A DNA stretch of 55,149 nt from a virus. Its lineage: Duplodnaviria; Caudoviricetes. Shown here piece after piece: positions 22,134 through 54,335 of the stretch. The stretch's first letter is position 1. Each line of letters begins with the position of its first letter. The DNA is taken from positions 1-55,149 of the IMG/VR virus record IMGVR_UViG_3300047290_000079. The stretch is one strand, 5' to 3'. Below the pieces are notes generated by a model that was not told where the DNA came from, searched no databases, and was given only the letters and a program-made list of their open reading frames with translations. A program made the translations under genes and the position numbers.

Positions 22134-23495
22134 TTAGGCTCCCAGATAATCGGTCGGATCCTTAGCGTCAGGCGAGAACTTACCCTTCGACAGGGCAGCA
22201 CCCTTCTGCTTGCGGATATTAGCACGGAATTGATCTAATTTCTTTGCGCCGGCTTTCGATGACCCATCACCGAGCAAGGCGACTGTCTCGGCATCTATGA
22301 CGTACTCGCCGTCAGAAAGTTTGGCATCGATGCTGTCAGACCGGCCTGTCCCGCCGCCCTGAACGTATCTTGAGAGGGGGCCGCCGTGAGCCGCCCGTGT
22401 GGGTTGCGGCTCCTCATCAACAGTCTCAACAGGCGCCTCGGCCTGCGCCATGGAATAATTGCGCTGCTCGGGGAGCTGGCCATAATTGTAATAGGGCAAG
22501 ACGGGGTTGCGCTGGCGCGTGAGAGGTGTTGCCTCAAGACGCCTAGTCATATTGGGGTCTGTGTAGGAGGGCGTTGTAGCGCCTTCTGGCTGCTTATTGC
22601 CGCCCAAAGACCCAGCAAGGCTCAAGGCCATCAATCCAAGGGGAATGGCGGTGCTGGACTTACCAAGGCTGGCAAGGATGCCGCCTCCTGTAGAACCAGC
22701 AGCAGCCGATCCAGCCTGACCAAGTGATTCCGTCATGCCTGGGGACAGAAAACCTTTGCCAGATGTGTCGCCAAGAGCTTGGGCCACGCTTCCTGTTTTG
22801 GCACCTTCTGCAGCCGCAGCCATGCCACCAGAACCAATAGCACCACCAGTCAGATTGCCAAGCCAGCCGCTTAAGCCACCTTCGCCGGTGCCTGTGACTG
22901 CTGAACCTGTGGCGCCCAAAAGGCCTGCGCCGATCGTTCCTAAGCCGCCAAGGGCAGCACCAGCAAGAGGATTGCCGCCTGTAATGGCGCTGGTCGCGCC
23001 GCCGACAAGGGCATTGCCAAGAACGCTAGGGAGCGCAGCACCTGCAATGGTTTCACCAGCGAGAGACGCCGGCAAAAGAGCGGCACCGATCGGGGCGCCA
23101 ATACCTGATGCAATAAGAGCTGCCGAAGCCAAAGAAGCCACAGGAGCAAACCAGCTCTGCTTCCAGAAAGGCGTAAACTGAGGCATCCCTGTGTGGGGGT
23201 TGATCGTAGGCTCGCCCCACTCTTGGCGAAGCTTCTCATATTCGTCTCGGTTGATGTGAATGATCATGGTGTCGCCACCGACACCAGCGCCTGCCACCTG
23301 CTTGGCTGCGCCTGTGAGGCCACCCTTTGCCATCCGCTCGACATGCTCACGGGGAGGCACGATCATGAAGGGCTTTGTGCCAGCTCTGCCGCCTTTGGCA
23401 AAAGCACTCATGGGCGAGCCTCTAAAGGCAGACCCTGCGGCATTGTTGACCAAGGGCCGCCAGTTTGCAGGTGTATCAGGATAATCAATTGCCAT
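22134..23495 (-). CDS. Internal virion protein with AxGG motifs, INPxTG module, Gly/Ala hydrophobic core and GTGRSDSI..LSDGEYV module
   Basis: Motifs read directly from the translation. Confidence 0.7.
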   Translation of the reverse strand: MAIDYPDTPANWRPLVNNAAGSAFRGSPMSAFAKGGRAGTKPFMIVPPREHVERMAKGGLTGAAKQVAGAGVGGDTMIIHINRDEYEKLRQEWGEPTINPHTGMPQFTPFWKQSWFAPVASLASAALIASGIGAPIGAALLPASLAGETIAGAALPSVLGNALVGGATSAITGGNPLAGAALGGLGTIGAGLLGATGSAVTGTGEGGLSGWLGNLTGGAIGSGGMAAAAEGAKTGSVAQALGDTSGKGFLSPGMTESLGQAGSAAAGSTGGGILASLGKSSTAIPLGLMALSLAGSLGGNKQPEGATTPSYTDPNMTRRLEATPLTRQRNPVLPYYNYGQLPEQRNYSMAQAEAPVETVDEEPQPTRAAHGGPLSRYVQGGGTGRSDSIDAKLSDGEYVIDAETVALLGDGSSKAGAKKLDQFRANIRKQKGAALSKGKFSPDAKDPTDYLGA

Positions 23496-23496
23496 G

Positions 23497-23733
23497 TCAG
23501 CCACTCAGGTTAACGGCTCGAGTGAAGGCAAATGCCCAGTCGCGCCACTCGTCATAATTCAAAGGGTTAGGCGGATTTTGCTTTCCGACTTCGAAAAACG
23601 CAACCACGCCCAAAGCCCAATTCTGCCAATTCTCTTCTTTATCCAGACGAGACACAGTGCCATATTTTTCGAGAATATACACCATGCTGTCGGTCCAGTC
23701 AGTAACCGTCATGTTGCGGGGGTCGATCATCAT
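23497..23733 (-). CDS. Hypothetical virion-associated protein (Trp-rich)
   Basis: WQNWA and WRDWA motifs; overlaps the upstream stop. Confidence 0.7.
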   Translation of the reverse strand: MMIDPRNMTVTDWTDSMVYILEKYGTVSRLDKEENWQNWALGVVAFFEVGKQNPPNPLNYDEWRDWAFAFTRAVNLSG

Positions 23734-26641: not shown

Positions 26642-26642
26642 T

Positions 26643-27296
26643 TTATACCTCCGTGCGCTTGGCGGCGCGGTCAAGGATCTTGGCTAGATCCTCGCCACTG
26701 AGGGCCTGAGCGGCGCGATCATACATGGATTGCCACACCTGAATGCGCTCGTCGTTCTTCAGGAAGGGCGTTGCCTCGAGAAGTGAGCCATACAGGATCA
26801 ATTGCGGTGCGTATTGCGTGAGCCAATTGCTCTGGTTTGCATCGTCGAGGAGCGGGATCAATTGATAGACCAGAACCTCAAAGGGATAAGCCGCATCGGG
26901 CGTGGGTGCCACAATCCAGTTGTTATAATCGTATTCGGCATAAAAGAGGGGCGTGCCTGTCTGGCTGCGATCGGGCCAATATGACCTGACGTACTCATAA
27001 GAGCGGGGCCAGAGCTGGTTATAGGTGCTGTTGTCGTTTCCATTGCCGAAGTTGAAGGACACCGTCTGGCGCCAGCGGTCAGGTTTTGGGTAAACAGCAA
27101 GGCCGGCCTGCATTGTGCCGGTCAGGACGTTGATCAGGCCTTCGACCTTCAGCTCTCTTGCGATCCGCTGCTCGGCCAGATTGATCAGACGCGGGATCTG
27201 CTCAAAGACAATCTGGTCAGAGGCGAGGGTGAAGCCGCGCTCAAGATACCGACGAATGTCGGTTTTGAGGCTGTCGAAGGTCATAATCTCGGCCAT
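26643..27296 (-). CDS. Head-tail adaptor protein
   Basis: IPRLINLAEQRI.RE, PTPD..Y and LYGSL.EA..FLK patterns. Confidence 0.7.
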   Translation of the reverse strand: MAEIMTFDSLKTDIRRYLERGFTLASDQIVFEQIPRLINLAEQRIARELKVEGLINVLTGTMQAGLAVYPKPDRWRQTVSFNFGNGNDNSTYNQLWPRSYEYVRSYWPDRSQTGTPLFYAEYDYNNWIVAPTPDAAYPFEVLVYQLIPLLDDANQSNWLTQYAPQLILYGSLLEATPFLKNDERIQVWQSMYDRAAQALSGEDLAKILDRAAKRTEV

Positions 27297-27647: not shown

Positions 27648-27648
27648 G

Positions 27649-28386
27649 TCAAACCCCGTATTGGTCCATGTGCTTCTTGCGCCAGTACCAGATGGCAGCC
27701 CCAATGCCGACCACAGCCACCATGATGAGGAAGTTGGTGTCTTTGAGCATGGACATGACGGTGGCAAACAGGTCATTTGCCTCTTGAACTTGCGTTACAA
27801 CTTCCTTAACCGCCCCTACCGAACCCAAAGCACCGATGGCGATGGCACCATTTGCCTGTTTTGATTCAGTAATGGTCCTGACTGGCACGGGGTCTGGATC
27901 GATCCGCTGCTCTTCCTCAACCACGGGCTGGTTAGCCAGATCACGCCACCATTCAGCCTCTGCACGGCGACGACGAACAAGGCCGGGAATTTCCTTGCCG
28001 CCACCCTTAGTCCATTTCATCAATTCGGCTGGAACGGCATCAAAGTTGCCTGCATTGATCTTTTTGAGCAAAGTGGAAGTTTTTAATTGAGGAACACCAG
28101 CATTGTACGCAAAGTCAGCAAGCACATCAAACTGATGTTGGGTTAGCTTAACTTTGACCAGATCATTAACGCCATTTTCATATTTAACAATATCGCGCTT
28201 GAGGATGGCTTCAGCCTCGTCCTGCGTAATGGTCATGCCCTCTTTTACAAAAGGCTCCCCAGCGGCGCTTGTGTGGCCATAGCCAATAGTCCATTTGTCA
28301 GAGGGGCATTTGTAGGCTTTCAACTTGCAGCCTTCAAATTTCTTGAGCAGGTTATCCAACGCGTCTTGTGACATCTGCATGGTCAT
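27649..28386 (-). CDS. Endolysin, GH24 lysozyme, with hydrophobic C-terminal extension
   Basis: FEGCKLKAY, WTIGYGHT, FAYNAG and GLVRRR.AE motifs. Confidence 0.92.
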   Translation of the reverse strand: MTMQMSQDALDNLLKKFEGCKLKAYKCPSDKWTIGYGHTSAAGEPFVKEGMTITQDEAEAILKRDIVKYENGVNDLVKVKLTQHQFDVLADFAYNAGVPQLKTSTLLKKINAGNFDAVPAELMKWTKGGGKEIPGLVRRRRAEAEWWRDLANQPVVEEEQRIDPDPVPVRTITESKQANGAIAIGALGSVGAVKEVVTQVQEANDLFATVMSMLKDTNFLIMVAVVGIGAAIWYWRKKHMDQYGV

Positions 28387-28853: not shown

Positions 28854-29071
28854 CTGTCGGACTTTGCCTCCAGACGGTCGAATATCTTGCCCAAAATGTT
28901 TTTAATTTCGTCTATGTCATGCCGATAATCATCTTTGGTGACATATGTTATCGGCATTTTGCGAACGTCTTCATCGAGACGCTGGATTGCCTTTGTGATG
29001 CTATTGAGTACCCAGCCGCCAAAGAAGGCTGCTAATCCGACAATTGCATTGAAGACGAATTGGGGGTCCAT
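28850..29071 (-). CDS. Putative holin-like / single-TM coiled-coil lysis protein
   Basis: N-terminal TM followed by YVTKDDY..DI..IK...IFDRL; upstream of the endolysin. Confidence 0.55.
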   Translation of the reverse strand: MDPQFVFNAIVGLAAFFGGWVLNSITKAIQRLDEDVRKMPITYVTKDDYRHDIDEIKNILGKIFDRLEAKSDR

Positions 29072-30156
29072 TCGGTCGCCTCGTTTTCGGGTGTCTCAAG
29101 TTCCCCCATCACAAACTTGAGATTGGTCAGTAACCTTTGGTCATCTGGTGACTTCTCAACCGCCAAACGAGCCTGCTCAATAGATACTTTATTCAGGCCC
29201 AAATGCCAAGCGGCGATGGACGCCAAATCATGCGGCTGACTGCCCCAAACCTCTGGGTCCACAGTGTATACCAGCTCTCTATTAACAATTTGCAAAGCCC
29301 GCATGGCATAAGCAAAAGACTCTGCCCAGCGCCATTGGCGATACATCAGCATGGCCAGCTCACACCAAGGTTCGCGGGTGTTAGGGGCCTCCATGGCGGC
29401 CATATGAAAAGCCTTCTCGGCTTCCTCATTCTTACCAAGCTCGCTGTAGCAGCGGCCCATAACCCGATAGGCATAGCACCTTTCATTGGGCCAGTCGGCT
29501 CTGGGCAGTCTCAGATAGCGATTGCACTCGTCGATAGACTGCTGCCAGTGGGCATGAAAGCTCAACTCACGGGCATAGTAGAAAGCATTTCGGGGGCAGT
29601 GAGGATCTTCCTCAACCGATACTTTAAGTAAATCGAGATACTGCCCACGGCTCTTTGTCGGGTCAGGCTTATGGACAGCCAAGAGCATGTCGGTGTCAGC
29701 CCAGACTTCGGTGATTCGGCCATCAGGCATGGGGTATTCATGGCAGGGGTGATGGAAAAAGTACCCATGACGGGCAAATATTTTCTCATACTTGAATTGG
29801 ATGCCTGAACCCCAGTCAAACATATACCGGAGCCTTGTTGTCCCCGGAACCCAAACACGTTCAATTTCCTGCCGCCAGCCTGGTTGAAGCACTTCATCAA
29901 TATCTAAGCTAATAACAATATCAATGTCACGGGGGAGCAGTGCCAATGCTGCGTTGCGGGCTAAGTCAAACCGCCATGGTGTGATGCAGATATGGTGAAC
30001 TTCTGCACCACATTCTTTAGCAACCTCTGGAAGGCCGTCATCTGATCCTGTATCTGCAATCAAGATCAGATCGGCTTCTTTTGCTGATTCACAGAAGCGC
30101 GGCACAAAATGCGCTTCATTCTTCGCGATGGCGCAGACAGCTATCTTTAACGGCAT
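29032..30156 (-). CDS. GT2 glycosyltransferase with TPR repeats
   Basis: AIAKNE, ADTGSDD, FDLARN, SLDIDE and HE motifs, then TPR-like helices. Confidence 0.9.
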   Translation of the reverse strand: MPLKIAVCAIAKNEAHFVPRFCESAKEADLILIADTGSDDGLPEVAKECGAEVHHICITPWRFDLARNAALALLPRDIDIVISLDIDEVLQPGWRQEIERVWVPGTTRLRYMFDWGSGIQFKYEKIFARHGYFFHHPCHEYPMPDGRITEVWADTDMLLAVHKPDPTKSRGQYLDLLKVSVEEDPHCPRNAFYYARELSFHAHWQQSIDECNRYLRLPRADWPNERCYAYRVMGRCYSELGKNEEAEKAFHMAAMEAPNTREPWCELAMLMYRQWRWAESFAYAMRALQIVNRELVYTVDPEVWGSQPHDLASIAAWHLGLNKVSIEQARLAVEKSPDDQRLLTNLKFVMGELETPENEATEWTPNSSSMQLSD

Positions 30157-30164
30157 GATTCCCC

Positions 30165-30389
30165 CTATGCCTGATTGATTGTCGCCGTAGACGTCTCCCT
30201 GTCTATGACAAGAACGCCCTCGCAAGCCAAGTTCCACTCACCATAAGCAAATTCATTATGGCACGGCACATTGACCTTGAAGTTTTTGAATAGATACTCC
30301 TTGCCCTCTTCAAAGACACGCCACTTATGGTCTGGTGTACCACGTCCGGGTTCACCAGCCGTCTTGTTATATCGGATGTGGTACTTCAT
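30165..30389 (-). CDS. Hypothetical protein
   Basis: MKYHIRYNK..G..GRGT..H.WRVFE. Confidence 0.7.
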   Translation of the reverse strand: MKYHIRYNKTAGEPGRGTPDHKWRVFEEGKEYLFKNFKVNVPCHNEFAYGEWNLACEGVLVIDRETSTATINQA

Positions 30390-31024
30390 CAGATAACCTC
30401 TGCCGCCGGTGCAGGAGGATTGGCAATGACGCCCAGATTGAAGTGAATGAACGTCATCGGATCTTCGGATTGATTGCGCGTAAATGAATGCGGCAACCAT
30501 GAATTTGCAAATATTAACATGCCTTCTTCAGGCACAACATTGATCATACTACTAGCGCCAGTAATTTGCGTATTATTTGCTTCTGGTAAACCTATCTGAA
30601 CTTTGCCAGATCGCGGATCATGGAATACGGCAATTGAGCCGTTATTTGGAACTTTGACAAAGTAAAAGCCGACAATCTGCGCACCATAAGGGTGAACATG
30701 CTGGTCCATGCCTGAATATTTATAATGGTGCTGCGCCCACATTTCTGTGAATGTCGTGCTAAACTTTGACATATCATAGCCCTGATTGGCTAATATTTCC
30801 CAAGCAGAGCGGCCAATGTATTCACACAAAGCATCTATTCGAGTATCTTCAAGCAGGCTGTCTGTCATGCATACGGGATAAACATCATTGACAACGCATT
30901 GTTCTGCTTTTTTCTTTTCAATATTCTCATAAACAACAGTTTTGGCAACTTCCAAAAATTGCGGTTTTTTTACAACATATACGCATGTTGGAAAGCAATA
31001 AACTTGCTCTATCTCACTAATCAT
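30389..31024 (-). CDS. 2OG-Fe(II) oxygenase (TIGR02466-like)
   Basis: FPT, W.Q, HVH, FHDPR and FANSWLPH facial-triad pattern. Confidence 0.85.
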   Translation of the reverse strand: MISEIEQVYCFPTCVYVVKKPQFLEVAKTVVYENIEKKKAEQCVVNDVYPVCMTDSLLEDTRIDALCEYIGRSAWEILANQGYDMSKFSTTFTEMWAQHHYKYSGMDQHVHPYGAQIVGFYFVKVPNNGSIAVFHDPRSGKVQIGLPEANNTQITGASSMINVVPEEGMLIFANSWLPHSFTRNQSEDPMTFIHFNLGVIANPPAPAAEVI

Positions 31025-31038
31025 ATCCTTAATCCCCC

Positions 31039-31380
31039 TCAAGGATGTTTCATTGATGCCTGCATCTTCTCCATGTTGACAATTTCTTCAGGTGTCAGAT
31101 CACGCACAATCCATGAAAACACCCACTTCCCATCACGGACAAACGGTTCAGGCGAACGATATACTGTTTGCTTCTTGTTGTCGTATGTTGGATCTGGGTC
31201 AATTTCAACATAGTGAAGACGATACCCATTAAGTTTATACGCATCCGTGTTAGGGAATATCTCAACAAAGTCAGAGTATGGCGTGTAGCCAAGGCCAAAA
31301 TTATCCCGCATCAGCTCTTCAGCGCCATAAGGATATTCGACAAACTGATTGTCAATTGTTGTCTTGACGTATCCAGTCAC
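31039..31380 (-). CDS. Tail-fibre-associated / chaperone-like protein
   Basis: YPY...P.YD..KQ...P...GKW...W.VRDLT.EE pattern. Confidence 0.6.
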   Translation of the reverse strand: MTGYVKTTIDNQFVEYPYGAEELMRDNFGLGYTPYSDFVEIFPNTDAYKLNGYRLHYVEIDPDPTYDNKKQTVYRSPEPFVRDGKWVFSWIVRDLTPEEIVNMEKMQASMKHP

Positions 31381-31991: not shown

Positions 31992-32960
31992 TTAGAAGTT
32001 TACCCCATTTGTTCCGTTTGATGCCGCTGTGCCAAAATTACTTGTTGCGGTTGATGATGTTGCTGATGCCACAGTGCATCCTGAATATGTGTATTTGCAT
32101 CTATTTGTTGATGAATTTCCTGTTGCAAAAATTCCCTGAACAGAATTACCCGCAGCAGAACCACCATATAAATTAACTCCAAGACTAGTTGCAGTTGCAA
32201 CAGTTCCGCCAGAATATGTATATTTTCTTGTGGTTTTTGATGCATTTCCTGTTGCAAATATACCAACTGTTGAGTTCCCAGTTGCAGCTCCCGCATAATT
32301 ACAGGCCACCAAAGATGTTCCTGCTGCAACAGCGCCAGAAGAATATGTTATTTTACAAGTATATGGCTGTACTGCACAACAAGTATACGCAATTGAAAAA
32401 ATACCAAATGTTGAGTTTCCTGCGGCTGATCCACCATATGTTGTATAAGTCAAGACAGAACCAAGATTTGTATTTGTGTCGCCAGAATAAGTATATTTAT
32501 TAACTGTTCTCTGGCAGCTTCCAAGAGCAAACATTGCAACGGTTGCGTTTCCAGCCGCTGACCCAAAAGAACTTGTGGTCGATGAAGCTGTTGCCGAGGC
32601 AACGGTGCATCCTGAATATGTGTATTTATTTCTTGTTGCTGTACCGCCACCTATTGCAAAAATACCAACTGTTGAACTGCCAGCAGCAGCGCCGTCACAA
32701 CTAGTCGCCAACAAAGATGTTGCCGCTGCGCTTACATCACCAGAATAGGTGTATTTGTTTGTTGTAGACGTTCCTGCGCCACGCGCAAAAATAGCAAATG
32801 TGCCGTCTTGGATATTTCCTGCGAGCGGCCAAATTCCTTGCTTTACATATTGTAATTGCTCGTTAACGGTCCATATGCCCGGGGCTGTACCGCATTGGTA
32901 TGGCCCACTAGGAGTTATGGCTGTCTTAGTAATAATGCCGCCAGGGTATCTCTCGCTCAC
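31992..32960 (-). CDS. Putative receptor-binding protein with about 7 tandem 39-aa repeats (propeller-like)
   Basis: Repeated AAGNSTxGIFAxG...KYTYSG unit; N-terminal YPGGII...GIWT...WP. Confidence 0.7.
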   Translation of the reverse strand: MSERYPGGIITKTAITPSGPYQCGTAPGIWTVNEQLQYVKQGIWPLAGNIQDGTFAIFARGAGTSTTNKYTYSGDVSAAATSLLATSCDGAAAGSSTVGIFAIGGGTATRNKYTYSGCTVASATASSTTSSFGSAAGNATVAMFALGSCQRTVNKYTYSGDTNTNLGSVLTYTTYGGSAAGNSTFGIFSIAYTCCAVQPYTCKITYSSGAVAAGTSLVACNYAGAATGNSTVGIFATGNASKTTRKYTYSGGTVATATSLGVNLYGGSAAGNSVQGIFATGNSSTNRCKYTYSGCTVASATSSTATSNFGTAASNGTNGVNF

Positions 32961-39502: not shown

Positions 39503-39813
39503 TAGCAATCCCACTTTCTCAAAGATTTGTTAATGCGGCTGTTAGGATCTCGAGCAGTCTCGGCAGACGTCAGCTTGGCCTTCATACCTTTCATCCGGCT
39601 ACAAAAAGAGTCCCGCCGCGCAGCCGCAGCAGGACTTTTCTTTGCCTCAGAAGAGCTTACAGGCCTCTTGATGTCATGACCTTGCGCACGAAGAGAGGCG
39701 CGGCCCTTCTCATTCAGGCCGCCCTCTGGGTTCTTGCCTTCAGCTCGCGTCCACGCACCACCCGTCTTGTAGACTGGAGTTGCGCCGCCTTTTGCCATGC
39801 ACCAGCGACCCAT
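39502..39813 (-). CDS. Basic DUF6321-like protein
   Basis: AWTRAEGKNPEGGLN.KGRAS...RR.SFC.RM.G...SRINKSLRKWDC. Confidence 0.75.
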   Translation of the reverse strand: MGRWCMAKGGATPVYKTGGAWTRAEGKNPEGGLNEKGRASLRAQGHDIKRPVSSSEAKKSPAAAARRDSFCSRMKGMKAKLTSAETARDPNSRINKSLRKWDC

Positions 39814-43161: not shown

Positions 43162-44085
43162 TCAGCGTGCTGCCTTGTTTTCACGATCGTAGGAAGAATA
43201 GATCTTAAGCATCTTTTCTCGCCTTTGCGGATCGTCCCAAATGCCAGCGTCCTTGAGTGCCTGCACTCGTTCGGGGCTGACATAAATTTGTCTCTTCCCG
43301 GGGGTTATGTCCCGAGAACCTCCAACAGGCGGTCCACGCCTGCCAGCTTTCGGCTCATTATAACTTGCTTCGCCATCTTCATCAAATCGATGAGGAAGAC
43401 GCTCGGCAAGGCGCCGATTCAATTCCTTCCAGTACCTTTTGCTGGCAGGATCAAAGCCTTCTGCAATCAAGCCGCTGTCGACGGCCTTGGCAACCATGCT
43501 GTCGGGATCTGAACCATTGGCGTTGAACCATGAGTTTTCAGATGCCCATTTTGCAGCACGTTGCGCTACCTCAGTGCTATTCATCGGCACTGGGGGTGCG
43601 GCAACGGTCTGCTTGGCACGGTTGATCTGCGCAGCCTCAGCAAGGGCACGATCGCGCTGACGAAGCAGCTCAGGAACTCTTGAGCCTTCACCAATCTCAA
43701 TTGCCTTTGCCAATGCGGCCTCAGTGGCTTGCACAGTGTACAAAGCACGCTGATAATCCTGATCGAGCGAACCTTTCTGAGCAGTAAGTGCATGATCTTC
43801 AACGCTTTTAAGGCGTTGTTCGAGCATTTTGTTTTGCTCGATCAACCATTGCATCTCTTCGCGGGTTTTGTCGCGTGCGTACTGCTGCGATCTTTTTCGC
43901 GTCTTGCGCTGTTCTCGACGAGCCTCTCGACGATTTCGCTCGTCTTCTGACAGGGTTTCAGAAAGTCGTTCGTCACCATCTTGCTCATCATGATCTTCAT
44001 GATCATCTTGCGCAGTCTGTGCCGCAGCATTGGGGTCTTCACCCTCAATAATCTCAATTTCTTCGTTCTCTTTTTCGCCGCCCAT
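43162..44085 (-). CDS. Scaffolding protein (putative)
   Basis: Acidic N-terminus, coiled coil, WA..N.WF and YW.EL..R; expected position. Confidence 0.7.
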   Translation of the reverse strand: MGGEKENEEIEIIEGEDPNAAAQTAQDDHEDHDEQDGDERLSETLSEDERNRREARREQRKTRKRSQQYARDKTREEMQWLIEQNKMLEQRLKSVEDHALTAQKGSLDQDYQRALYTVQATEAALAKAIEIGEGSRVPELLRQRDRALAEAAQINRAKQTVAAPPVPMNSTEVAQRAAKWASENSWFNANGSDPDSMVAKAVDSGLIAEGFDPASKRYWKELNRRLAERLPHRFDEDGEASYNEPKAGRRGPPVGGSRDITPGKRQIYVSPERVQALKDAGIWDDPQRREKMLKIYSSYDRENKAAR

Positions 44086-44096: not shown

Positions 44097-44540
44097 TCAG
44101 ATATGTGCTTTGATTTCAAAGGGATCCTCAACATCACCAACGATGCTCAGGTCATCAAAGATTGCAAACTGAACCTTCTGATCCAGATCAGAGTTGCTGT
44201 CTTTGAAAGTTCTTTCCCAGCGGATGCCGCCGTATTTGGGGACAAACACATACTGGCCCTTTGTGCACCAAACGCCTTCCGACCATGGTTCGAGCGTATT
44301 GCGGTTCTTATAGGCCAATGGGCCTACAGCCAGAACCTTGGCGACACAGGTGTTATCAAGCTCTGTATCTTTTGTGGCTTCAGAGTAAATAATGCCACCC
44401 TTACTTTTGGTTCTCGCCCGTCTAATTTGGACAAGAACTCGAGATCCAAATGGCCTGATGCCTGCATTGATCTCGGGGAAGAGGTTTTCTTCCTTATCAG
44501 TACTGGACCCATCTTTTACCAACATGACGGCTTGTGCCAT
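44097..44540 (-). CDS. groES: GroES-like co-chaperonin
   Basis: IRPFGSRVLVQ, KSKGGII mobile loop and KVLAVGP. Confidence 0.85.
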   Translation of the reverse strand: MAQAVMLVKDGSSTDKEENLFPEINAGIRPFGSRVLVQIRRARTKSKGGIIYSEATKDTELDNTCVAKVLAVGPLAYKNRNTLEPWSEGVWCTKGQYVFVPKYGGIRWERTFKDSNSDLDQKVQFAIFDDLSIVGDVEDPFEIKAHI

Positions 44541-44721
44541 GTTCCGTTCCTTCTTCTGCTGCGAGGGCTTCATTTATAATCGCAAGTGCGCGATCCAGCC
44601 CTGCATAGTGACCAATCCGGCGACCGTACTCAAAAGGTGAGCCGTCACCGGGCGACTGCATAGTTTCATGCGCTACAAGATTTTTTTCCTCTAGTAGCGC
44701 ATTTATGATTATTTCCAGCAT
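44497..44721 (-). CDS. Hypothetical head-module protein
   Basis: FEYGRRIG..AGL..AL.II pattern. Confidence 0.7.
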   Translation of the reverse strand: MLEIIINALLEEKNLVAHETMQSPGDGSPFEYGRRIGHYAGLDRALAIINEALAAEEGTEHGTSRHVGKRWVQY

Positions 44722-44947: not shown

Positions 44948-47401
44948 TCACGGGTTGATGCCATGGCCGGTGGTAAATCTTGCCTTCTGTCCATGTTCGG
45001 CCTCAAAGACAGCAAGCTCTTTTGCAGTGTTGTTATCCTCTGCATTCATCTGTGCGCGAGCCTGAATGCCAGCCATCTCAGCCTGAATACGTTCTTGGTC
45101 AAGCTGTTGCTGGCGGGCTTCATGGGCTGCTTGGATCTGCAGCTTCTGCGCATCAATCTGGTTTCTGGCCTGATCAACAGCGGCCTTGCGCTGTGTCTCA
45201 GCCATGAGGACTTGCGAGGGATCCATAGGCGGCTTGGGCGCCATCTGCTGCATGACCTGCATGGCCTGCATGATGATCGGAGGCAGGCCCTGAAGGCTCT
45301 GCTGGATCTCAGGCATATAGCGCTGGCTGGCCATGGCAAGTGTGCGATCAAGCTCTGCTGACAATTCGTGGTCTTCTTGCCCCAAGAAGTTATCCAAAGG
45401 CTCGCCCGTGGCTGCACTGGCCTGCTCATAAATATAGAGCGAGTACCAGTAAGCCATATGCTCTTTGACGTGCTGCAGGACGCCAGGAATGAACACAGGC
45501 CCGATGAGCGGGTTCATGCCAAAGATCGGCGAGCGCAGATAATCAAGATGGACCTGCAGGTGAGCCAAGTGGTCTTGCATCGGGAAGGCTGCCACAGGGC
45601 GACCTAGCGTCAAGGCAAGGTTCTCATTGACCGCATTCAGCTCAATAGGCTCAGGACGTTTGGCAAGCAGGCGTTTGGCAGCATCAGGGATCTTTGTGCG
45701 CTCAAGGAATAGCTCTTCAACAGCGCGAGGATTATAAAGGCCTGGGTGCGTATCAGCACGCTGCAGAACCATCTGCATCTGTGCGATGCGCTGCGCCTCG
45801 GAGAAGATGTTAGGGTCAGAGACCGGCACAACGTCCATCGGACCTTGGAAGTCCTCGGCCTCACACATCTCCTCGCCCGTCACCTTCTTGATGTACTCAT
45901 CATCAAGGTGCTTTGCGTTGAGGCGATGCAAGACCTTCAGGAACATCTGCATGGCCGCATGCTGGCGGGCATGGATGGACGAGAAGACCGTCATGCCCTG
46001 CTCAAGGAGGGCCATTGTCGTGCCGACAGGCTGCTGAGGAGAGGCCTGCTTGAAGTCTTCAAAGGTCGTGCGAACAACGCCGCGAGCAGCATCAGTCACA
46101 AAACCAAGGAGCTGGAACAGGACAGGGCTTGGCGGGTTGAAAGGCACAGCCATGGCGAGCTTGCGCACGTCATCGGCGCCAACGCCGCCCTCGATCTCGG
46201 TGACTTGGGTCGGCTCGATGCGGTCTGTCTGACCGCCGCGATTGCCGCCCTTCAGCTTCAGCATGCCAGGGAAATTGTTGATGTGCGCACTATCAAGCAA
46301 TGCACGCAGCGCACCTGTAGCGGCCGCAGACAGGCTGCCGATCATATGCGGCAGACCGATCGGGTACGCACCACGCCATGGCACGAAGGGGAACTCGATG
46401 ATGTGGATCAGCTCTTGCTGTTGGTCATCATCTGGATCCCAGTTGCGATAGATCGAAAGCACATTCTGTGAGGTGTGATCGATCGTGACAATGTAGGGCG
46501 CCAGACCGAAGTTCTCTTCGAAGTCCAGATAGCAGGCGATTTCGAAGACCTGCCGCGTTCCGTCCTCGTTGTAGGAACTTTGCTCCTTGCCTTCGATCTT
46601 GTTGTTGGCCTTTTGAGGCCCTGTCAGATCTGGCTCTTGAGGCGTATCAAGATTGATCTTGCGATACATGCCAGTGCCGATCCGCATCTCGAACTCAAGG
46701 CGTGTCAGGGCTTGGGCATGCGTCTTACGCTCTGCGCTGTAGAAGCTTGTGGCGCTGTAGGGCAGATAAACGTCATCGATCGGGATGAACATCGAGACGG
46801 GCCGGTTCTTCTGCTCGTCCCAATACAGCTTCATGTATTGAACGCCGCCGAGCGGAACCTGTGTCTCAAGCTGCTCAAGCTCAGACCTAAATTCGATCAT
46901 CTGCTGTGTGAGCTGCCAATTCATGAACCGCTGCTTGCGCTTGGCCTTGTCGAGCTTCTCCTGCGTTGATTCGCCGGGAATATACTCTTTGACAGGGCCA
47001 GACGGCGGGAAGATCTCTTTGATCACGCGGGATGAGTAGTCGACACAAGCCTCTGTGAGCATGGGGTGCACGACTTTAGTCGCACCTTGGAATGATGCAC
47101 CGCCAGGGGCATCTTCACCAAGACCTGTACGACGAAGGCCTTCCTCATACTGCTTGTCGCGCAGTGAGCGGGCTTCCTTGTCGCGTTCGACAAAGTCTAA
47201 AAGCTTCTGGCCGATATCGCCAAGGGTTGAATTATCCATGTCCTCGGCCAGATTGGCATAGAACTCGGCATTCTGAGCAGCAACAGGCTCATCCATGGTG
47301 ACAACAGCAGAACCGTCATCATTCTCCTCGACGTCAGAGATCTCGTCGTCATTGATTTCGACGGTTTGACCCTGATCTTGGTTCTGATCGTCATCTTCCA
47401 T
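44948..47401 (-). CDS. Portal protein (P22-like)
   Basis: GAT.VVHPML.EA, FP.SGPVK, FMNWQL, LRALLDS, PVGTT.ALLEQG, VSDPN and H.AH...H motifs. Confidence 0.9.
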   Translation of the reverse strand: MEDDDQNQDQGQTVEINDDEISDVEENDDGSAVVTMDEPVAAQNAEFYANLAEDMDNSTLGDIGQKLLDFVERDKEARSLRDKQYEEGLRRTGLGEDAPGGASFQGATKVVHPMLTEACVDYSSRVIKEIFPPSGPVKEYIPGESTQEKLDKAKRKQRFMNWQLTQQMIEFRSELEQLETQVPLGGVQYMKLYWDEQKNRPVSMFIPIDDVYLPYSATSFYSAERKTHAQALTRLEFEMRIGTGMYRKINLDTPQEPDLTGPQKANNKIEGKEQSSYNEDGTRQVFEIACYLDFEENFGLAPYIVTIDHTSQNVLSIYRNWDPDDDQQQELIHIIEFPFVPWRGAYPIGLPHMIGSLSAAATGALRALLDSAHINNFPGMLKLKGGNRGGQTDRIEPTQVTEIEGGVGADDVRKLAMAVPFNPPSPVLFQLLGFVTDAARGVVRTTFEDFKQASPQQPVGTTMALLEQGMTVFSSIHARQHAAMQMFLKVLHRLNAKHLDDEYIKKVTGEEMCEAEDFQGPMDVVPVSDPNIFSEAQRIAQMQMVLQRADTHPGLYNPRAVEELFLERTKIPDAAKRLLAKRPEPIELNAVNENLALTLGRPVAAFPMQDHLAHLQVHLDYLRSPIFGMNPLIGPVFIPGVLQHVKEHMAYWYSLYIYEQASAATGEPLDNFLGQEDHELSAELDRTLAMASQRYMPEIQQSLQGLPPIIMQAMQVMQQMAPKPPMDPSQVLMAETQRKAAVDQARNQIDAQKLQIQAAHEARQQQLDQERIQAEMAGIQARAQMNAEDNNTAKELAVFEAEHGQKARFTTGHGINP

Positions 47402-47413
47402 GTGATGTCTTTC

Positions 47414-48619: not shown

Positions 48620-48631
48620 GCTAATCTCCTG

Positions 48632-51481
48632 TCAGCCTCTGTAACGTGAGAGAGGCCCGATCCCGAGCGAGTAAGCCAAGTTCGGGTTTTGCGATACCTG
48701 CGATTGTATAGGACTTGCGTTCACATTGCGATAGGCAGAGAGCGGGCCAACCCCAGAAAGGCTTGGGGCCGAAGCGGCGGGAGCTGGCGCCAATGGCGAA
48801 GCAACCTGATTGTCAAAGCCTGCCATGCGATACCCAGGCAGACCCGGAGGCACAGCAATGTTGCCGACCGGACCTTGGCCATCGGTGTAAGCCGTGATCG
48901 GGAAGGACTGATCATAGGATGTCTGCTGCAGCGGCTGCTTGTAGGAGACCTGCCCGCCCTCAGCCAGTCTAAGGCCCTCGGGATTATATCCTGCGTAATA
49001 ACTCGGGATGATCGGATTTCTGGCTCGTCCCCATGTCGATGCTGTGACAGTCTTGGTTGTCGGTTTTTTAATGGTTGTGCCATCCCCCGTACCAGTGCCG
49101 GTTGTTGTGGTGCCACCACCACCAGTACCACCGCCACCACCGCCTGTGCCACCACCACCAGTACCACCGCCACCACCGCCTGTGCCACCACCGCCTGTGC
49201 CGCCACCACCGCCTGTGCCTGTTCCTGCACCAGTTCCTGTTCCCGTGCCAGTTCCTGTACCAGTTCCTGTTCCCGTGCCAGTTCCTGTACCAGTTCCTGT
49301 TCCCGTGCCAGTTCCTGTTCCGCCACCAGTGCCACCACCAATGCCGCCAGTGCCACCGCCGACAACGGCGCCTGTAGTGCCACCACCTGTGCCCTCGGTG
49401 CCGCCGCCAACACCGCCTGTTGTCGCTCCGCCAGTCGTCGTGCCGCCAGTCGTCGCGCCGCCAGTTGTGGCGCCGCCTGTTGTCGCTCCGCCGGCATCAG
49501 CAACCTTTAGGGTGTTGATCTGCTTGCCCATGGCAGCGAGATATGGGTCAAAGGTGTAGAACGCATGATTGCCGATCGTGGCAACCTTTGTATACCCGTT
49601 TGCCTTTGCCCAAGAAGGAGATGCAAGGTTCGGGTTGAAATAGAAAGCTGCGCCATTTGTCGGATCGGCAACCTTTCCTGAGATAACATCAAGAGCGGTC
49701 TGCACGGCCTGCTGCCAGTTCTTTGTGTTCATTGCCTCGTCGGCCGCAACACCTTGTCTGATTGTGCCTCGAGGGTCACCGGCATCATTCATCCACGAAT
49801 ATTGATAAGGTGCCGTGACCTGCGCTGCGATAGATCCTCTCATGCTGGCGTCGGGTACGCCAACACCGGCATTGGCAGCAGCACGATTGAGCGCACTGTA
49901 AGCTGCCGCAATCTGACCCTGCGTGCTTTCGCCTCTAGCCTCGCCAAGAATAGTGCGGGCCAGAGCCAGAGCATCAGCATAGGTCTGTGGCGTCACACCC
50001 TTGGCTGTGGGGATCTGGGCGCTTAACTGCTCGTCGGTGTAATCCTTGCCCGAGAAGTTGTTTTTGTTGGCAGCCTGAAGAATTGCCGCAATTGATGCTG
50101 ACAAAGCATTAGCGGCGGCACCAGCCTCTTGCGTTTTGTCAGTTTCTTTGGTCGGTTGCGGCGGAGCTTCTGCAATCTTTTCCTCAACGGCAGGAGCTGC
50201 ACCACCAGTGGGCTTACCTCCACCACCTGCAATTAACTCGTCAGGCTGGATGACTGGCGTAACTTTCTCTTCAGGCTTTGGTTCAGGCTCTGGCTCAGGC
50301 TCTGGTGCAAGCTCTTGCTTCTCAGGTTCTGCTGGAGGAGCTGGGGGAGCAACTGGCTGCTCTTGCACAATCTGAAGATCAATAGGCGCTTGGTAACCGG
50401 CAACGGGGCCAAATACAGTTTGCGTGCCTTTAATGTCTTCTGGGTTCACTGTTAAGTTTGGCGCAATCTCAACCGTCTTGGTGCCTTGGCTTCGCTCAAG
50501 AGCGTCTTGAGCTTGCAGCGCTAAAGCTTCTGGAAGGCTCATTACGCCAGCGGCAACCTGATTTGCGTAGAACGGATCAATTAAGGCGTCAGACGTAAAC
50601 ATTGCCGACGAAGGGCCAAATGTGGTGCCAAGTAGTGGCGCTTCATCTTCCTTATCAATAGCACCCGTAAGGCCAAAGCCTCCAGGCCCGACAAGGGAGC
50701 TTTGGCCAAGATCAAGATTACTACCAACAACACCGCTGATGCCGAAGTCTCCTGATGTTGTGGGGCCTAGAGCGGCCGCGACATCAGCAGCAGTGCTTGG
50801 GCCGAACCCAACGCCCTGCGAAATACCTTGAGCCCCGAAGTCGCCAAAACCTGGCGTGCTCAAAGCACTGTCGGGGCTGTAAGTCGTGTCAGTCAAAACA
50901 CCTGTCGGGCCAGATAACCCAAACTCACCGATCGTGCTGCCCGGCGCAGAAGGACCTGCTGCAGGACCACCAAGGGCATCATCGAGCGACCCGAGAACGC
51001 CGCCCTGCAGCTCGCCTGGCGTCTCGGTGCCAGCACCTTGAGTTGCATCCCAGTCAGTAACAGCATCGCTTGGCGCGGCCGCTGGACCGCTCTCTACAAA
51101 CTCACTGCCTGCGCCCTGATAGTCTGTGGCGGCTGTCCCAGCGTCTTCATACCCGCCATCACCGTCATCGACACCGCCGCTGCCGTCAGTCCCGTCGCCA
51201 GTACCGTCCCCGCCATCATCGCCACCACCCTCGTCATCGAACGACAGAAGGCCGGTGCGGGGATTGATCTTGCCCGAGCCACCTAAAGACTTCAGGACGG
51301 CAGCCTCGTGAGGCGTGATCTGCGCGATCAGCTTATCCTTGTTGATACCTAGGCTGGCCAGCTTCTTGAGCAGGGCCTGCACCTCTCGAGGGCTGTACTC
51401 ACGCCCTCCAGCCTGAATGGGGGCGGACGGCGCCTTCACGGCACCGCCATCGGCAAAATAGGCGTCAGCATCAAAACGCAT
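48632..51481 (-). CDS. Large low-complexity virion protein with SleB/Hydrolase_2 peptidoglycan hydrolase domain
   Basis: LARTILGEARGE...LNR...PYQYSW...DPTNGA.FY.NP...PSWA...IGNH.FY, flanked by acidic, Pro-rich and GT-repeat linkers. Confidence 0.85.
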   Translation of the reverse strand: MRFDADAYFADGGAVKAPSAPIQAGGREYSPREVQALLKKLASLGINKDKLIAQITPHEAAVLKSLGGSGKINPRTGLLSFDDEGGGDDGGDGTGDGTDGSGGVDDGDGGYEDAGTAATDYQGAGSEFVESGPAAAPSDAVTDWDATQGAGTETPGELQGGVLGSLDDALGGPAAGPSAPGSTIGEFGLSGPTGVLTDTTYSPDSALSTPGFGDFGAQGISQGVGFGPSTAADVAAALGPTTSGDFGISGVVGSNLDLGQSSLVGPGGFGLTGAIDKEDEAPLLGTTFGPSSAMFTSDALIDPFYANQVAAGVMSLPEALALQAQDALERSQGTKTVEIAPNLTVNPEDIKGTQTVFGPVAGYQAPIDLQIVQEQPVAPPAPPAEPEKQELAPEPEPEPEPKPEEKVTPVIQPDELIAGGGGKPTGGAAPAVEEKIAEAPPQPTKETDKTQEAGAAANALSASIAAILQAANKNNFSGKDYTDEQLSAQIPTAKGVTPQTYADALALARTILGEARGESTQGQIAAAYSALNRAAANAGVGVPDASMRGSIAAQVTAPYQYSWMNDAGDPRGTIRQGVAADEAMNTKNWQQAVQTALDVISGKVADPTNGAAFYFNPNLASPSWAKANGYTKVATIGNHAFYTFDPYLAAMGKQINTLKVADAGGATTGGATTGGATTGGTTTGGATTGGVGGGTEGTGGGTTGAVVGGGTGGIGGGTGGGTGTGTGTGTGTGTGTGTGTGTGTGTGTGTGAGTGTGGGGGTGGGGTGGGGGGTGGGGTGGGGGGTGGGGTTTTGTGTGDGTTIKKPTTKTVTASTWGRARNPIIPSYYAGYNPEGLRLAEGGQVSYKQPLQQTSYDQSFPITAYTDGQGPVGNIAVPPGLPGYRMAGFDNQVASPLAPAPAASAPSLSGVGPLSAYRNVNASPIQSQVSQNPNLAYSLGIGPLSRYRG

Positions 51482-51500
51482 GGCTCAGTTCCTCAATTCC

Positions 51501-54335
51501 TCAAGGATTACCATAAATCACGCGATCCCGTAAGTGACGACGAAGCTCGCTGGTATACTTCTTGGCAGCAGTGTGCTTCATCGCCCCGTGAAGGGTGATC
51601 AGGAACTTCTCAGTGGCCGGATTGACCTTATGGTGAAGCTGCGGGTCGGTCAGGACGTTGTGAGCATATTGAGCCGCACGGTCATTCGGGATGCCCATCA
51701 TCTTGATCAAATGGGTCATGGCAGGCTTCTGCAAGCCATGCTCCTTTGCCGTCTTTCTGATGTCGCCAACGAGGGCTATGTGCGATGAAGGGTGGCCGAC
51801 AGATGGCTTGCGGGCCTCAACCTTGCCACCTTCTGCATAAGCCGACTGCCCCTTCATGATGGCTTCGCGCATCTTTGGGGTGATGGTGAGGGAGGGGGCG
51901 GCGATGGAATGGCGCACAGAACCAATCAATGCGCGTTTTTCTGCATCCGGCAGCGCATTAATTTGTTCAATAGACATATTCAATTCGCTAGCAATATCAG
52001 ATGCTGATTTATTGCGACCTTCGACAGGCAACCGCCCCATCTCAACCTTCGCCTCTGGATCCAGCTTCTTCACCAGCTTGCTCAACTGGTTTGGCACGAT
52101 CTTGTCGTAATAGCCCTTCATGCCTTCGCCGCCAAACACAAGATCAGGAGCTTCAAGCGAATGAATACCGTTTAATTTGTTTGGTTCTTGCGCAAGAAGT
52201 TTTTCAGCAGCTTCTTTACCAATTATCTCAGGCAAATCTTTTGGTTCTACATCCCCAGGATGTTCAGTCCAACCTTGCCCTCCTCTTCCCTTTTGAACAT
52301 AGCTCAAAGTTTTTTCTTCTGGATCGTAAGCTATGCGATCAACATGTGTACTCAAATCATACCGCTTCGCCTGCTCAACACCCGGCGTCCAGACGAGCTT
52401 ATCATACCCGCCTTCAGCAGCTTCTTTGAGCGCACGTTTCAAAGCAAGGTCGGTCCATGCCTGCGTGTTGGTGACATAGGGGGCGGGGGGCGGCGCTTTC
52501 AGCCGACGATCACCAGTAGCATTCAAAGCATCCAATTCAGTTTGCTGGGCAGGCGTTCTGCGGATTTGAGGGATGTTTATCAGTTCACGGAAACGAGCAG
52601 TTTCATCAGCACTTAAACCGGCAGGCTCACCGGGATGCTTGAACCCCTCTTTCTTCCCCTGCTGCCCCCAATCGGACTGTATCTCCTCGACATGCAGGAT
52701 CTTCTCACCGTTCGGGCCGGTGCGGTCTGACATGCGCAGGTGGGCTATAGTGTTAGGCGCGTCTGGCCAGTGGCTGGACTCAAATAGCGGCTTGTTGGCA
52801 ATTTTTTCAAAATTTCTAACACTTGATTTTGCGTAATCTGCCTCTTGTCTAAGGGCCTCAAATTCTGCGTTAGATAATTTTGAAGTCCCCTCAAGCGTAG
52901 CAAGAAGCTCATCATCATATGCCTTTTGTGCTTTTTTTGCCCTATCAGCTAGCATCATCATTTTTTCGGAAGTTTCTTTTGATGCGCCCGCATTCTTGGG
53001 TAATGTCAATCGAACCTCGCGGTAGTTCTCGCCGCCGGGTAGGGTGTATTGGCTGAATTTGGTGGGGTTGGCCGCCATAGTTCTGCCAAGGCTTTCTTGA
53101 TCACGCACATATTTGTACGCATCAGCAAGTTCTTTAATTATGCCTTGATATTCAGCAGGATAGAAATCTGGGTTATATGTTCCTCTGGCAATAGGCGTAT
53201 GCTCTGTAATTCCAAGGTCGTATAGTTCGTTTGAAAGACGATCAATTTTTTCCCAAGTTTTTTGCAAATCTTTATTAGGCGCACCCAACACCGTCTCTTC
53301 AACCTGCGGCATCTTTTCATTGAAGTGCTGCGCAACTTCGTCTTTGGTCACAGACTTTTGACCAGCAAATGCTTCATCAAAACCTTCAAGCTCTGCATCC
53401 TTCACGCCTGCTTTTTTCAGCATAGACTTGATTTGCTCTGGCGATCCTTTTGCTTGCGGCAACTCGGAAGCGACTTCAGCCGCATGGCTGTAGAACCCAA
53501 GAGGTGATAGTTCACGGCGCACAGGCCCAGCTCCAAGCACAACACCAGCACCGCCAACAGGCGCAGCGATGCCGCCAGTCAGACCTGCGCCAGCAGCCGA
53601 CAACACTTTTTCAACATCTTCTGGATTGTTGTAGTCAGGCGACTTACCTTCCTCAATCGCTTGCTTCGTCAACTCAGAACCAGCCATCAGACCTTTGACA
53701 ACCTCGGCAGCTGCCTTGGTTCCAACAGCCTGGCCAATCGGCAAACCAGCAGGAGGTAATGCCTGATCGCTTTCGCCAAACAGTAACGCCTTGCGTGGAT
53801 CCATCACTGCTTGCTTGCGTGCTGTCAGATCAATCTCACCACCATCAGCCTTCTTGATCGGCATAGTGTGGCGGCCGTTCTTCATCCAGTCTTTCAGCTC
53901 GTGCTTGCCCATCTCGACGATCGAATGAACCCGCTTGTGGCCAAGACCATCAGCAAACGAATGCACATAGTCATGCAGGGCGTGCTTGCGATCTTTATAG
54001 CCAAGCATGACCTTGTGCTCGTTGAAGCGCTTTGAGTGGGGGTGCTGCTGATTGATCACAAAGACCTTGTCGCTGTCCTTATGAGGACCGACATAGGTGT
54101 CGACGTCCATCTTGTCCGCGTCCTTCGCAGAGCCGACGATATAGCCATAGTCCGCAGCCATCTTGGCTGGGCCGCTGTCCTCTCGCACCCTTGTCGAGCC
54201 TTTGGGGTTCTCGATCGACACCGGCAGACCTGCGACACGCTCGTGCTGCTTGGGATAGTTGCCAGCCTCACGCTGGGCCGGTGAGACATTGGCGGGGCCG
54301 CCTGCGGCAAAATATCTGTCGGCATCAAAGTGCAT
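51501..54335 (-). CDS. Large polyvalent protein: InPase-like domain plus LPD-type region
   Basis: SIENPKGSTR...DYGYI...D.D..D..VG...F.EHKVMLGY (InPase type); GFYS...KG..EQ...GVK..E, YTLPGG.NYRE, SHW, AHLR..DR and VEEIQSDW.Q.G. Confidence 0.8.
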   Translation of the reverse strand: MHFDADRYFAAGGPANVSPAQREAGNYPKQHERVAGLPVSIENPKGSTRVREDSGPAKMAADYGYIVGSAKDADKMDVDTYVGPHKDSDKVFVINQQHPHSKRFNEHKVMLGYKDRKHALHDYVHSFADGLGHKRVHSIVEMGKHELKDWMKNGRHTMPIKKADGGEIDLTARKQAVMDPRKALLFGESDQALPPAGLPIGQAVGTKAAAEVVKGLMAGSELTKQAIEEGKSPDYNNPEDVEKVLSAAGAGLTGGIAAPVGGAGVVLGAGPVRRELSPLGFYSHAAEVASELPQAKGSPEQIKSMLKKAGVKDAELEGFDEAFAGQKSVTKDEVAQHFNEKMPQVEETVLGAPNKDLQKTWEKIDRLSNELYDLGITEHTPIARGTYNPDFYPAEYQGIIKELADAYKYVRDQESLGRTMAANPTKFSQYTLPGGENYREVRLTLPKNAGASKETSEKMMMLADRAKKAQKAYDDELLATLEGTSKLSNAEFEALRQEADYAKSSVRNFEKIANKPLFESSHWPDAPNTIAHLRMSDRTGPNGEKILHVEEIQSDWGQQGKKEGFKHPGEPAGLSADETARFRELINIPQIRRTPAQQTELDALNATGDRRLKAPPPAPYVTNTQAWTDLALKRALKEAAEGGYDKLVWTPGVEQAKRYDLSTHVDRIAYDPEEKTLSYVQKGRGGQGWTEHPGDVEPKDLPEIIGKEAAEKLLAQEPNKLNGIHSLEAPDLVFGGEGMKGYYDKIVPNQLSKLVKKLDPEAKVEMGRLPVEGRNKSASDIASELNMSIEQINALPDAEKRALIGSVRHSIAAPSLTITPKMREAIMKGQSAYAEGGKVEARKPSVGHPSSHIALVGDIRKTAKEHGLQKPAMTHLIKMMGIPNDRAAQYAHNVLTDPQLHHKVNPATEKFLITLHGAMKHTAAKKYTSELRRHLRDRVIYGNP

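Follow-up and report, generated by a model that had tools for sequence, protein, structure and literature searches.

Several unrelated internal proteins carry a common short leader at the N-terminus (the capsid targeting sequence of T4) and a short maturation consensus in phage T4 and in the inner body of giant phages, and adenovirus and African swine fever virus (ASFV) process their core and internal proteins at a Gly-Gly consensus, (M/I/L)-x-G-G|x. Among ejection and tape measure proteins of phages, the GenBank note on P22 gp7 records that host OpdA removes 20 N-terminal residues, the T5 tape measure protein pb2 is reported to be cut after R1127, between a hydrophobic stretch and the muralytic domain (PMC10038345), and lambda gpH loses ∼14 kDa from its Gly-rich C-terminal region, with both site and catalyst stated to be unknown in the cited sections of the report (PMC12617516). 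Processing into units has also been proposed for the 'polyvalent' proteins, where it was assigned to a zincin-like peptidase domain (PMC5512222), and the first 30 residues of a polyvalent protein of P1, DarB, are described as directing it to the capsid (PMC9024508). Here we analyse a short motif, [YFMKL]-A-x-G-G, that recurs in five late proteins of a podovirus (Caudoviricetes) known from the IMG/VR record IMGVR_UViG_3300047290_000079, which is rated complete and whose entire 55,149 bp form the window of this analysis. The motif is securely a real signal at the protein level, conserved in position and found at the module borders of putative packaged or ejected proteins and, as judged from sequence, it is a conserved junction peptide that delimits the modules of these proteins. 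The phage is related to Caulobacter phage RW, with which its portal (44948-47401) shares 52% identity, and more distantly to the Manatee Spring metagenomic phages MW202545 and MW202675, the roseophages CRP-901/902 and the pelagiphage HTVC023P.

The five proteins, here called A to E, and all motif copies within them are encoded on the minus strand. All 17 strings listed in an earlier note on this DNA are present in the respective open reading frames (ORFs): YFAAGG, KKADGG and AYAEGG in A (51501-54335), YFADGG and RLAEGG in B (48632-51481), AFAKGG, RMAKGG and RAAHGG in C (22134-23504), MYAKGG, KKAEGG, QYAKGG, KKAHGG, GKAKGG, GYADGG and the variant MKKGG in D (38422-39336), and CMAKGG and the variant YKTGG in E (39502-39813). 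The earlier note had counted at least 15 copies of the motif; the strings are real, but 14 of them fit the strict form [YFMKL]-A-x-G-G, RAAHGG falling outside it with Ala at position -3 before Gly-Gly. As background proteome we took 71 non-overlapping ORFs (17,486 residues) from a greedy caller, and the 66 of these other than A-E hold a single strict match, FAIGG in 31992-32960, which lies within a GGG run. Capsid and portal contain no strict match, which upholds the rarity in these proteins that had been noticed by eye. The enrichment over the rest of the proteome that the earlier note had proposed to check for was also found: when residues were permuted within each protein, none of 2000 shuffles reached the 14 matches of the five proteins (mean 1.41 ± 1.19), and the other 66 ORFs gave one match against a shuffle mean of 2.24. 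Taken singly, D (6 against 0.18) and A (3 against 0.19; p ∼0.001) depart furthest from their shuffles, followed by C (2 against 0.37, p 0.05) and E (1 against 0.03, p 0.03), while B is not significant by itself (2 against 0.71, p 0.15). Isolated GG pairs, outside G runs, carry the full motif in 14 of 48 cases in the five proteins and in 0 of 72 elsewhere (Fisher 7e-7), a contrast inflated by the choice of A-E for carrying the motif; free of this selection bias are the excess over the whole proteome (15 observed, ∼3.7 expected) and that in D alone.

The result for B, which has a long Gly-rich stretch, and the choice of the five proteins after the motif had been seen could both be taken to favour chance, with Gly-, Ala- and Lys-rich proteins yielding the pattern in the absence of selection. 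Set against the composition-preserving shuffles, the 352 motifs of the A family compared with 71.5 ± 8.6 in shuffles, and the conservation of position in homologues described below, this explanation is scarcely credible. Nor does the signal appear to lie in the DNA. Among the 19 motif copies in the window Ala is written GCC, GCT or GCA and Gly GGC, GGT or GGG, the middle codon is variable, and no common nucleotide word was found; the mixed codons point to selection at the protein level and not to a DNA repeat. A recombination signal, in the sense of a conserved nucleotide stretch at the borders that promotes shuffling, would agree with the coincidence of homology breakpoints and motif where the A core ends, yet in view of these codons it is very improbable, and we regard chance and a DNA-level signal alike as effectively excluded.

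Protein D (304 residues) is a chain of Lys-rich mini-modules separated by seven motif copies. One of these modules is DUF6496 (Pfam PF20106, 34.6 bits against a gathering cutoff of 24), and it is bracketed exactly by QYAKGG and KKAHGG. D has 1040 homologues at E ≤ 1e-3; here and throughout, homologue counts come from related sequences and are not numbers of independent events. In an alignment of 97 of 120 homologues, those 280-420 residues long, YAKGG at residues 29-33 (39238-39252) and KAEGG at 59-63 (39148-39162) are conserved, as they are in an 80%-identical relative (L007) that keeps all six of its sites despite an insertion separating two of them. YAKGG at 124-128 (38953-38967) forms a conserved island within a variable stretch, the Y.KGG columns being ∼0.5-0.9 conserved and the flanking columns 0.1-0.3. 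Further along, a composite junction (38689-38805) consists of KAHGG, a short helix-like stretch, and then KAKGG and YADGG, and it also matches L009/L010 with 81% identity. The variant MKKGG (38446-38460) stands 12 residues before the C-terminus, and a motif is found within the last 20 residues in 117 of the 120 homologues. Across 880 GG contexts in these 120 proteins, position -2 is Ala in 60% and Lys in 22%, position -3 is Lys, Tyr (12-fold over background), Met, Leu or Phe, and position -1 is Lys, Asp or Glu. In its fuller predicted form the motif is a bulky or basic residue, Ala or Lys, any residue, Gly-Gly, and then any residue, often Val or Ile.

Protein E (103 residues) combines DUF6321 (Pfam PF19846, E 5.6e-19, 69 bits against a gathering cutoff of 28.5) with an N-terminal extension that holds MAKGG (39784-39798) and YKTGG (39757-39771). 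This extension is kept in the close relative L007 and is absent from all four more distant DUF6321 proteins examined, from cyanophages and pelagiphages, so the motif is not intrinsic to DUF6321. A terminal Cys occurs on D (38422-38427), on E (39502-39507) and on a 449-residue motif-rich protein of MW202545 (L013 29844-31193), and is kept across the D-family C-termini listed.

Protein A (944 residues) has the build of a mosaic 'polyvalent' cargo protein, with a leader, an InPase domain (Pfam PF18823, residues 20-152, E 6.7e-36), a linker, a core at ∼271-834 and a C-terminal helical tail. The earlier note had placed its motifs at domain borders, and this is where they are: FAAGG at 9-13 (54297-54311), within the N-terminal leader common to A and B, and KADGG at 162-166 (53838-53852), at the C-terminal edge of InPase and kept in P0272 and P0276, flank the InPase domain, and YAEGG at 833-837 (51825-51839) marks the end of the conserved core. 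A fourth A-x-G-G, at 639-643, lies deep within the core and does not belong to the border type. The linkers of an AlphaFold model built on a 78-row alignment, with a mean predicted local distance difference test score (pLDDT) of 75.9, agree with these borders. The model has a confident core at ∼271-834, whose blocks mostly score 75-98 with dips to 62-68 at 561-580 and 601-620, and a helical tail at 849-940, and each of its low-confidence stretches, 1-18 (pLDDT <50), 162-223 and 835-850, contains or begins at a motif, that at 162-223 starting at KADGG. A Foldseek search of the model against the PDB returned no match at E ≤ 0.001. The motif before InPase persists where the domain is internal, as in an 898-residue protein of MW202675, in which RYGFNTGG, just before InPase, aligns with the FAAGG of A.

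Homologues of A number 613 at E ≤ 1e-5 and have varied added domains, the core being joined to PF18013, PF07486, PF01464, PF18760, PF18838, PF19846, PF13946 and PF01510 (lysozymes, SLT, Hydrolase_2, ART-PolyVal, DUF6321, DUF4214 and an amidase). All 78 aligned homologues retain G836 and G837. The core-end anchor is present in 112 of 120 homologues; in 108 of these the motif follows straight on from the conserved last helix, and past this motif the sequences are wholly divergent. Internal alignment ends fall within five residues of a motif in 24% of cases against 3.3% at random (maximum 5.7% in 50 trials), an enrichment that comes mostly from one repeated junction. Motifs also lie within ∼20 residues of the N- and C-termini in 24 and 30 of the 120 proteins, respectively, where random placement gives 7.1 and 5.4. 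A recurrent composite, seen in D and in members of the A family (e.g. P0291, P0300, P0305, P0352), consists of a motif, a conserved amphipathic helix of ∼10-12 residues and a second motif; it occurs in this form inside proteins, as helix then motif at N-termini and as motif then helix at C-termini. A loose pattern for the helix gave 120 hits in the A family. The motif precedes 16 of the 27 C-terminal hits and follows 15 of the 22 N-terminal ones, and the 71 internal hits comprise 9 flanked by it at both ends, 12 with it upstream alone, 1 with it downstream alone and 49 without it.

Protein B (949 residues) comprises a leader, a shared N-terminal module, a SleB-type cell-wall hydrolase (Pfam PF07486, Hydrolase_2, residues 517-642, E 3.4e-13), a Gly/Thr stretch and a tail. 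Its leader, with FADGG at 9-13 (51443-51457), is near-identical to that of A and is kept in one of nine B homologues (P0391). The second motif, LAEGG at 839-843 (48953-48967), is found ∼110 residues before the C-terminus, and in eight of the nine homologues a motif, mostly of the form [YF]A.GG[LP]V, lies ∼95-115 residues from this end. Between the hydrolase domain and the C-terminal motif B has an extreme Gly/Thr low-complexity run (residues ∼660-800, 49082-49504), with ∼15 consecutive Gly-Thr pairs.

Protein C (456 residues) is a member of the ejection cluster. Its middle is hydrophobic and rich in Gly and Ala, and its C-terminal element (residues 367-455, 22140-22406) recurs in ejection proteins of podoviruses and in the tape measure proteins of some siphophages. 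FAKGG at 35-39 (23388-23402) resembles N-terminal motifs in 17 of 150 C-family representatives, MAKGG at 58-62 (23319-23333) stands just before the module shared with B, and AAHGG at 371-375 (22380-22394) opens the C-terminal element. Across 40 aligned sequences of this element the A-x-G-G of AAHGG is represented by A44 and G47, each conserved to at least 90%, and by G46, which does not vary. No Pfam family matches C at E ≤ 1; tape-measure PHROGs match it at 354-433, and the element has 6332 cluster representatives at E ≤ 1e-3. A sequence search of the PDB matched C, in two segments, to gp16, the tape measure protein of mycobacteriophage Douge (PDB 8zdo chain S, E 1.9e-8). Only residues 1658-1699 of gp16 are reported as modelled, so the segments that match C lie outside the resolved structure (PMC13033339). 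The element is present twice in gp16 and twice in the C homologue of MW202545, and a profile of the 40 sequences scores 35 bits with a Nitrincola tape measure protein and 17.9 bits with that of Gordonia phage Jams; motif copies flank the C-type element in both of these proteins. The motif-like Y-L-S-G-G-R-V closes many proteins of the C family. Conservation of position in homologues, on which the earlier note had made its claim depend, was thus found in the families of D, A, C and B. The C element also has invariant acidic residues (D62, E72, D76, D85 and D96 in the numbering of a 128-residue query). A self-cleaving Ser-Lys module like that of LexA/S24 was considered for the element and rejected: no Ser position falls in an invariant column and, set against the all-beta core of the LexA/S24 fold, the model of the last 128 residues of C (mean pLDDT 59.8) is confident only for helices at 77-111.

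In the earlier note the five proteins were taken to be otherwise unrelated. This does not fully hold, as the proteins share mini-modules and, in A and B, a leader. A and B have a near-identical 13-residue N-terminus ending in the motif, and a leader of this type is kept in P0272, P0275, P0276, P0281 and P0391 and is missing from C, D and E. Residues 39-81 of B and 68-110 of C (51239-51367 and 23175-23303, minus strand) form a common 43-residue module (35% identity, pairwise E 1e-6), which lies just after the N-terminal motifs, ends in I-N-P-x-T-G and is conserved in all nine B homologues. The shared leader and module suggest that A-E are built from common small modules and are not five unrelated proteins; as read from their domains and modules, they are cargo or ejection-type proteins assembled from a common pool. 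That they are packaged we infer from their families, their gene positions and their relatives.

We compared the 71 window ORFs by tblastn with RW, MW202675, MW202545, CRP-902 and HTVC023P, using at most 50 kb of each genome. In MW202675 four consecutive genes after the portal carry the motif, among them one for a 382-residue Lys-rich protein with 6-8 copies, and in MW202545 it is found in a ∼890-residue portal-adjacent protein, in the 449-residue protein (11 copies), in a 171-residue protein and in the C homologue. RW, the closest cultured relative, encodes no counterparts to A, B, D or E, and its single motif copy lies in its C homologue, gp066c; CRP-902 and HTVC023P have no convincing motif set. 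This distribution suggests that the motif travels with accessory cargo modules.

Of the described systems, T5 pb2 offers the closest parallel to a cut at such a motif. R1127 is one residue before A-E-G-G at 1128-1131, one of only two A-x-G-G in the 1219 residues of the T5 record, and by our own arithmetic a random bond of pb2 would fall within three residues of either ∼1% of the time. As proposed for the proteins studied here, pb2 is an ejected virion protein that is cut at a module border, and the cut lies next to A-E-G-G followed by two hydrophobic residues (PMC10038345). In contrast to the motif in the window, the residue before Ala is Arg, and the likeness, a single data point, is at the level of the motif. 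Among the records and reports consulted this is the sole mapped cut found at such a motif, and it lies before Ala and not after Gly-Gly. Lambda gpH is similar in being a tape measure protein trimmed in a Gly-rich C-terminal region (PMC12617516), which bears two copies of [FY]-A-T-G-G (733-737 and 778-782). Pfam PF09718 spans residues 627-701 of gpH only, and no Pfam family matches the region of the two copies at E ≤ 1. A cut at the first copy would release ∼12.2-12.6 kDa and not 14, while GG pairs at 709-721 would give 13.8-14.6 kDa; the fragment mass does not discriminate between the candidate sites.

The likeness to T4 drawn in the earlier note, of a cleaved capsid-targeting leader, holds for the short leader of A and B, but this leader is confined to these two and their close relatives, the consensus differs, and no prohead protease was found in the window. 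The consensus of adenovirus and ASFV, also invoked, does not apply: position -2, given above for the D family, is Ala in 15 of the 17 window strings and not Met, Ile or Leu, the bulky residue standing one step further out, and no Ulp1-like or clan CE cysteine protease is among the Pfam or PHROG matches of the window proteins. With the polyvalent proteins A has in common the InPase domain described there, its late-gene position and its mosaic domain combinations (PMC5512222). Unlike the system proposed for them, no zincin-like peptidase domain was recognised in A or B by Pfam, nor was one found in the window. The words 'glycine' and 'linker' are absent from the main text of PMC5512222, so the junction motif is apparently not described there, the supplement lying outside the scope of the comparison. 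Searches with the motif strings matched no phage papers and the names of related phages gave genomics papers only, supplementary files again being outside scope, and the motif appears not to have been described before.

As to function, we place first the reading of the motif as a recognition site for limited proteolysis, which we hold to be plausible though short of probable. Cleavage would strip A and B of their common leader and free modules such as InPase, DUF6496 and DUF6321 from one another, either ahead of delivery or in its course; if T5 pb2 is a guide, the cut may lie immediately on the N-terminal side of Ala and not beyond Gly-Gly. The ranking follows from the border positions, the shared A/B leader and the T5 site; in its favour too, the motif is at the last ordered domain residues where, in the model, a flexible linker starts, it is often paired round a short helix, and it frequently falls no more than 20 residues from the start or end of a protein. 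A number of results weigh against cleavage. No protease family was found among 50 window proteins scanned with Pfam and 30 scanned with PHROGs, in keeping with the earlier statement that no protease gene is recognisable, and any enzyme would for this reason have to be a host peptidase or an unrecognised activity. For the candidates 42608-43147 and 43162-44085 Pfam and PHROGs were uninformative and Atlas gave only hypothetical viral clusters and one weak scaffold lead, and 37041-37343 matched no family by Pfam or PHROGs. A search by tblastn for a 'reader' gene limited to the motif-bearing relatives left only the small terminase (2174-2632), which we rejected as a candidate. Many copies lie 4-12 residues from a terminus, where a cut would free only a tiny peptide, a placement that would fit docking better. 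P22 gp7 resembles the proposed system as an ejection protein trimmed by a host peptidase, but its site (E20|K21, then GG) does not fit the pattern. The C-element profile matched neither T5 pb2 nor lambda gpH with filters off and E up to 1000, so the link to these two would be one of motif resemblance and not of demonstrated homology. Lastly, in the A family alignment starts, unlike ends, show no enrichment near motifs, and the homologue counts that underlie the border positions are not independent events. A third candidate of the earlier note, ORF 44497-44721, overlaps the GroES-like ORF 44097-44573.

Close behind proteolysis stands an uncut docking or hinge motif, a reading that is possible but somewhat doubtful; it gains from the many copies only a few residues away from a protein end and from the failure to find an enzyme. 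The motif, alone or as motif-helix-motif, would tether cargo proteins to one another or to a repetitive surface of the virion (the lumen of portal or tail, the core or the inside of the capsid), with Gly-Gly lending mobility to the domains on either side. Such a role needs no protease and would account for the extreme-terminal placement in the D family and in the Y-L-S-G-G-R-V ends of the C family, for the conservation of the helix between paired motifs, and for the 7-11 copies reached in Lys-rich proteins, which would suit multivalent binding. It also finds parallels in the gpI-bound segment of lambda gpH (818-849) in the solved tail tip, which includes the motif-like M-R-D-G-G at 842-846 (PMC12617516), and in the N-terminal capsid-localisation signal of P1 DarB (PMC9024508). 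However, no structural gene co-varies with the motif, since portal, capsid, scaffold-like and GroES-like genes are all retained in the motif-poor RW and HTVC023P; AlphaFold monomers (A and the last 128 residues of C) give the motif no defined structure, and docking alone leaves unexplained why the motif sits exactly where homology breaks. In a third reading the motif would be a passive linker signature with no reader, a domain cap and flexible Gly-Gly inherited with shuffled mini-modules, its recurrence reflecting common descent of linkers and tolerance of gene fusion or fission at these points. The mini-modules common to the five proteins, the many domain combinations of the A family, the contiguity of the motif with conserved domain ends and its presence in low-confidence, probably flexible stretches all speak for such a linker, yet we consider it unlikely: a plain linker seldom retains four or five defined positions in families that are 40-50% identical, the motif of D stands out as a conserved island within a variable stretch, and the pattern recurs in contexts as unrelated as the borders of InPase and DUF6496, tape measure proteins and protein termini.

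If a protease or a docking site reads the motif, it would supply a sequence rule for which proteins are packaged or injected, where their functional units start and stop and how they mature, and the rule would span thousands of metagenomic proteins (6332 representatives for the C element alone) and many anti-host 'polyvalent' proteins. The motif could further be a widespread and so far unannotated maturation code for injected phage proteins, in which a bulky or basic residue is followed by the cut and then by A-x-G-G; this extension we think improbable. Were it true, one code, read by a host peptidase or an assembly-triggered reaction, would serve both the cargo and ejection proteins of podoviruses and the tape measure proteins of siphoviruses, and Lys-rich proteins of the D type would be polyproteins that free small units such as DUF6496. 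Lambda gpH would then be cut beside one of its two [FY]-A-T-G-G, settling a site and mechanism that the cited sections of a 2025 report state to be unknown (PMC12617516); the motif yields two candidate cleavage sites for this protein. Even as a linker signature only, it would be a useful marker for splitting mosaic proteins for annotation and structure prediction.

The genes for A-E lie among other late genes on the minus strand. C is directly adjoined by a cluster matching PHROG 'DNA ejection protein' families (18038-22131), and the late genes further include those for an SU10-type adaptor (26643-27296), an endolysin (27649-28386), a collagen-like fibre (35437-37044) and the capsid protein (41082-41996). 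A GroES/Cpn10-like protein with an N-terminal extension (44097-44573, minus strand) is encoded between the portal and a scaffold-like gene, and the same order of portal, GroES-like and scaffold-like genes is annotated in RW, MW202675, MW202545, CRP-902 and HTVC023P. A 307-residue protein beside the capsid genes has a scaffold-like appearance (a weak Atlas lead, 0.87). At the ends of the record a minus-strand ORF is open on both sides (3-764 with an open 3' end and 54325-55149 with an open 5' end), which would join to ∼528 residues if the record is circular or permuted; its C-terminal part matches a terminase nuclease domain and it adjoins a complete large terminase (739-2181) and the Sf6-type small terminase (2174-2632). 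RW likewise has two large-terminase-like genes. Among the early genes, on the plus strand, are those for a protein with a Tad2-like (anti-Thoeris) domain and a GcrA-like cell-cycle regulator (13059-13592 and 15917-16450). GcrA is an alphaproteobacterial regulator, and the gene hints at an alphaproteobacterial host, which agrees with the relatedness to Caulobacter phage RW. Also present are two genes that resemble those for glycosyltransferases, of which one has TPR repeats, and a 2OG-Fe(II) oxygenase-like gene (29032-30237, 30389-31042 and 17023-17784), two of the three falling inside the late region.

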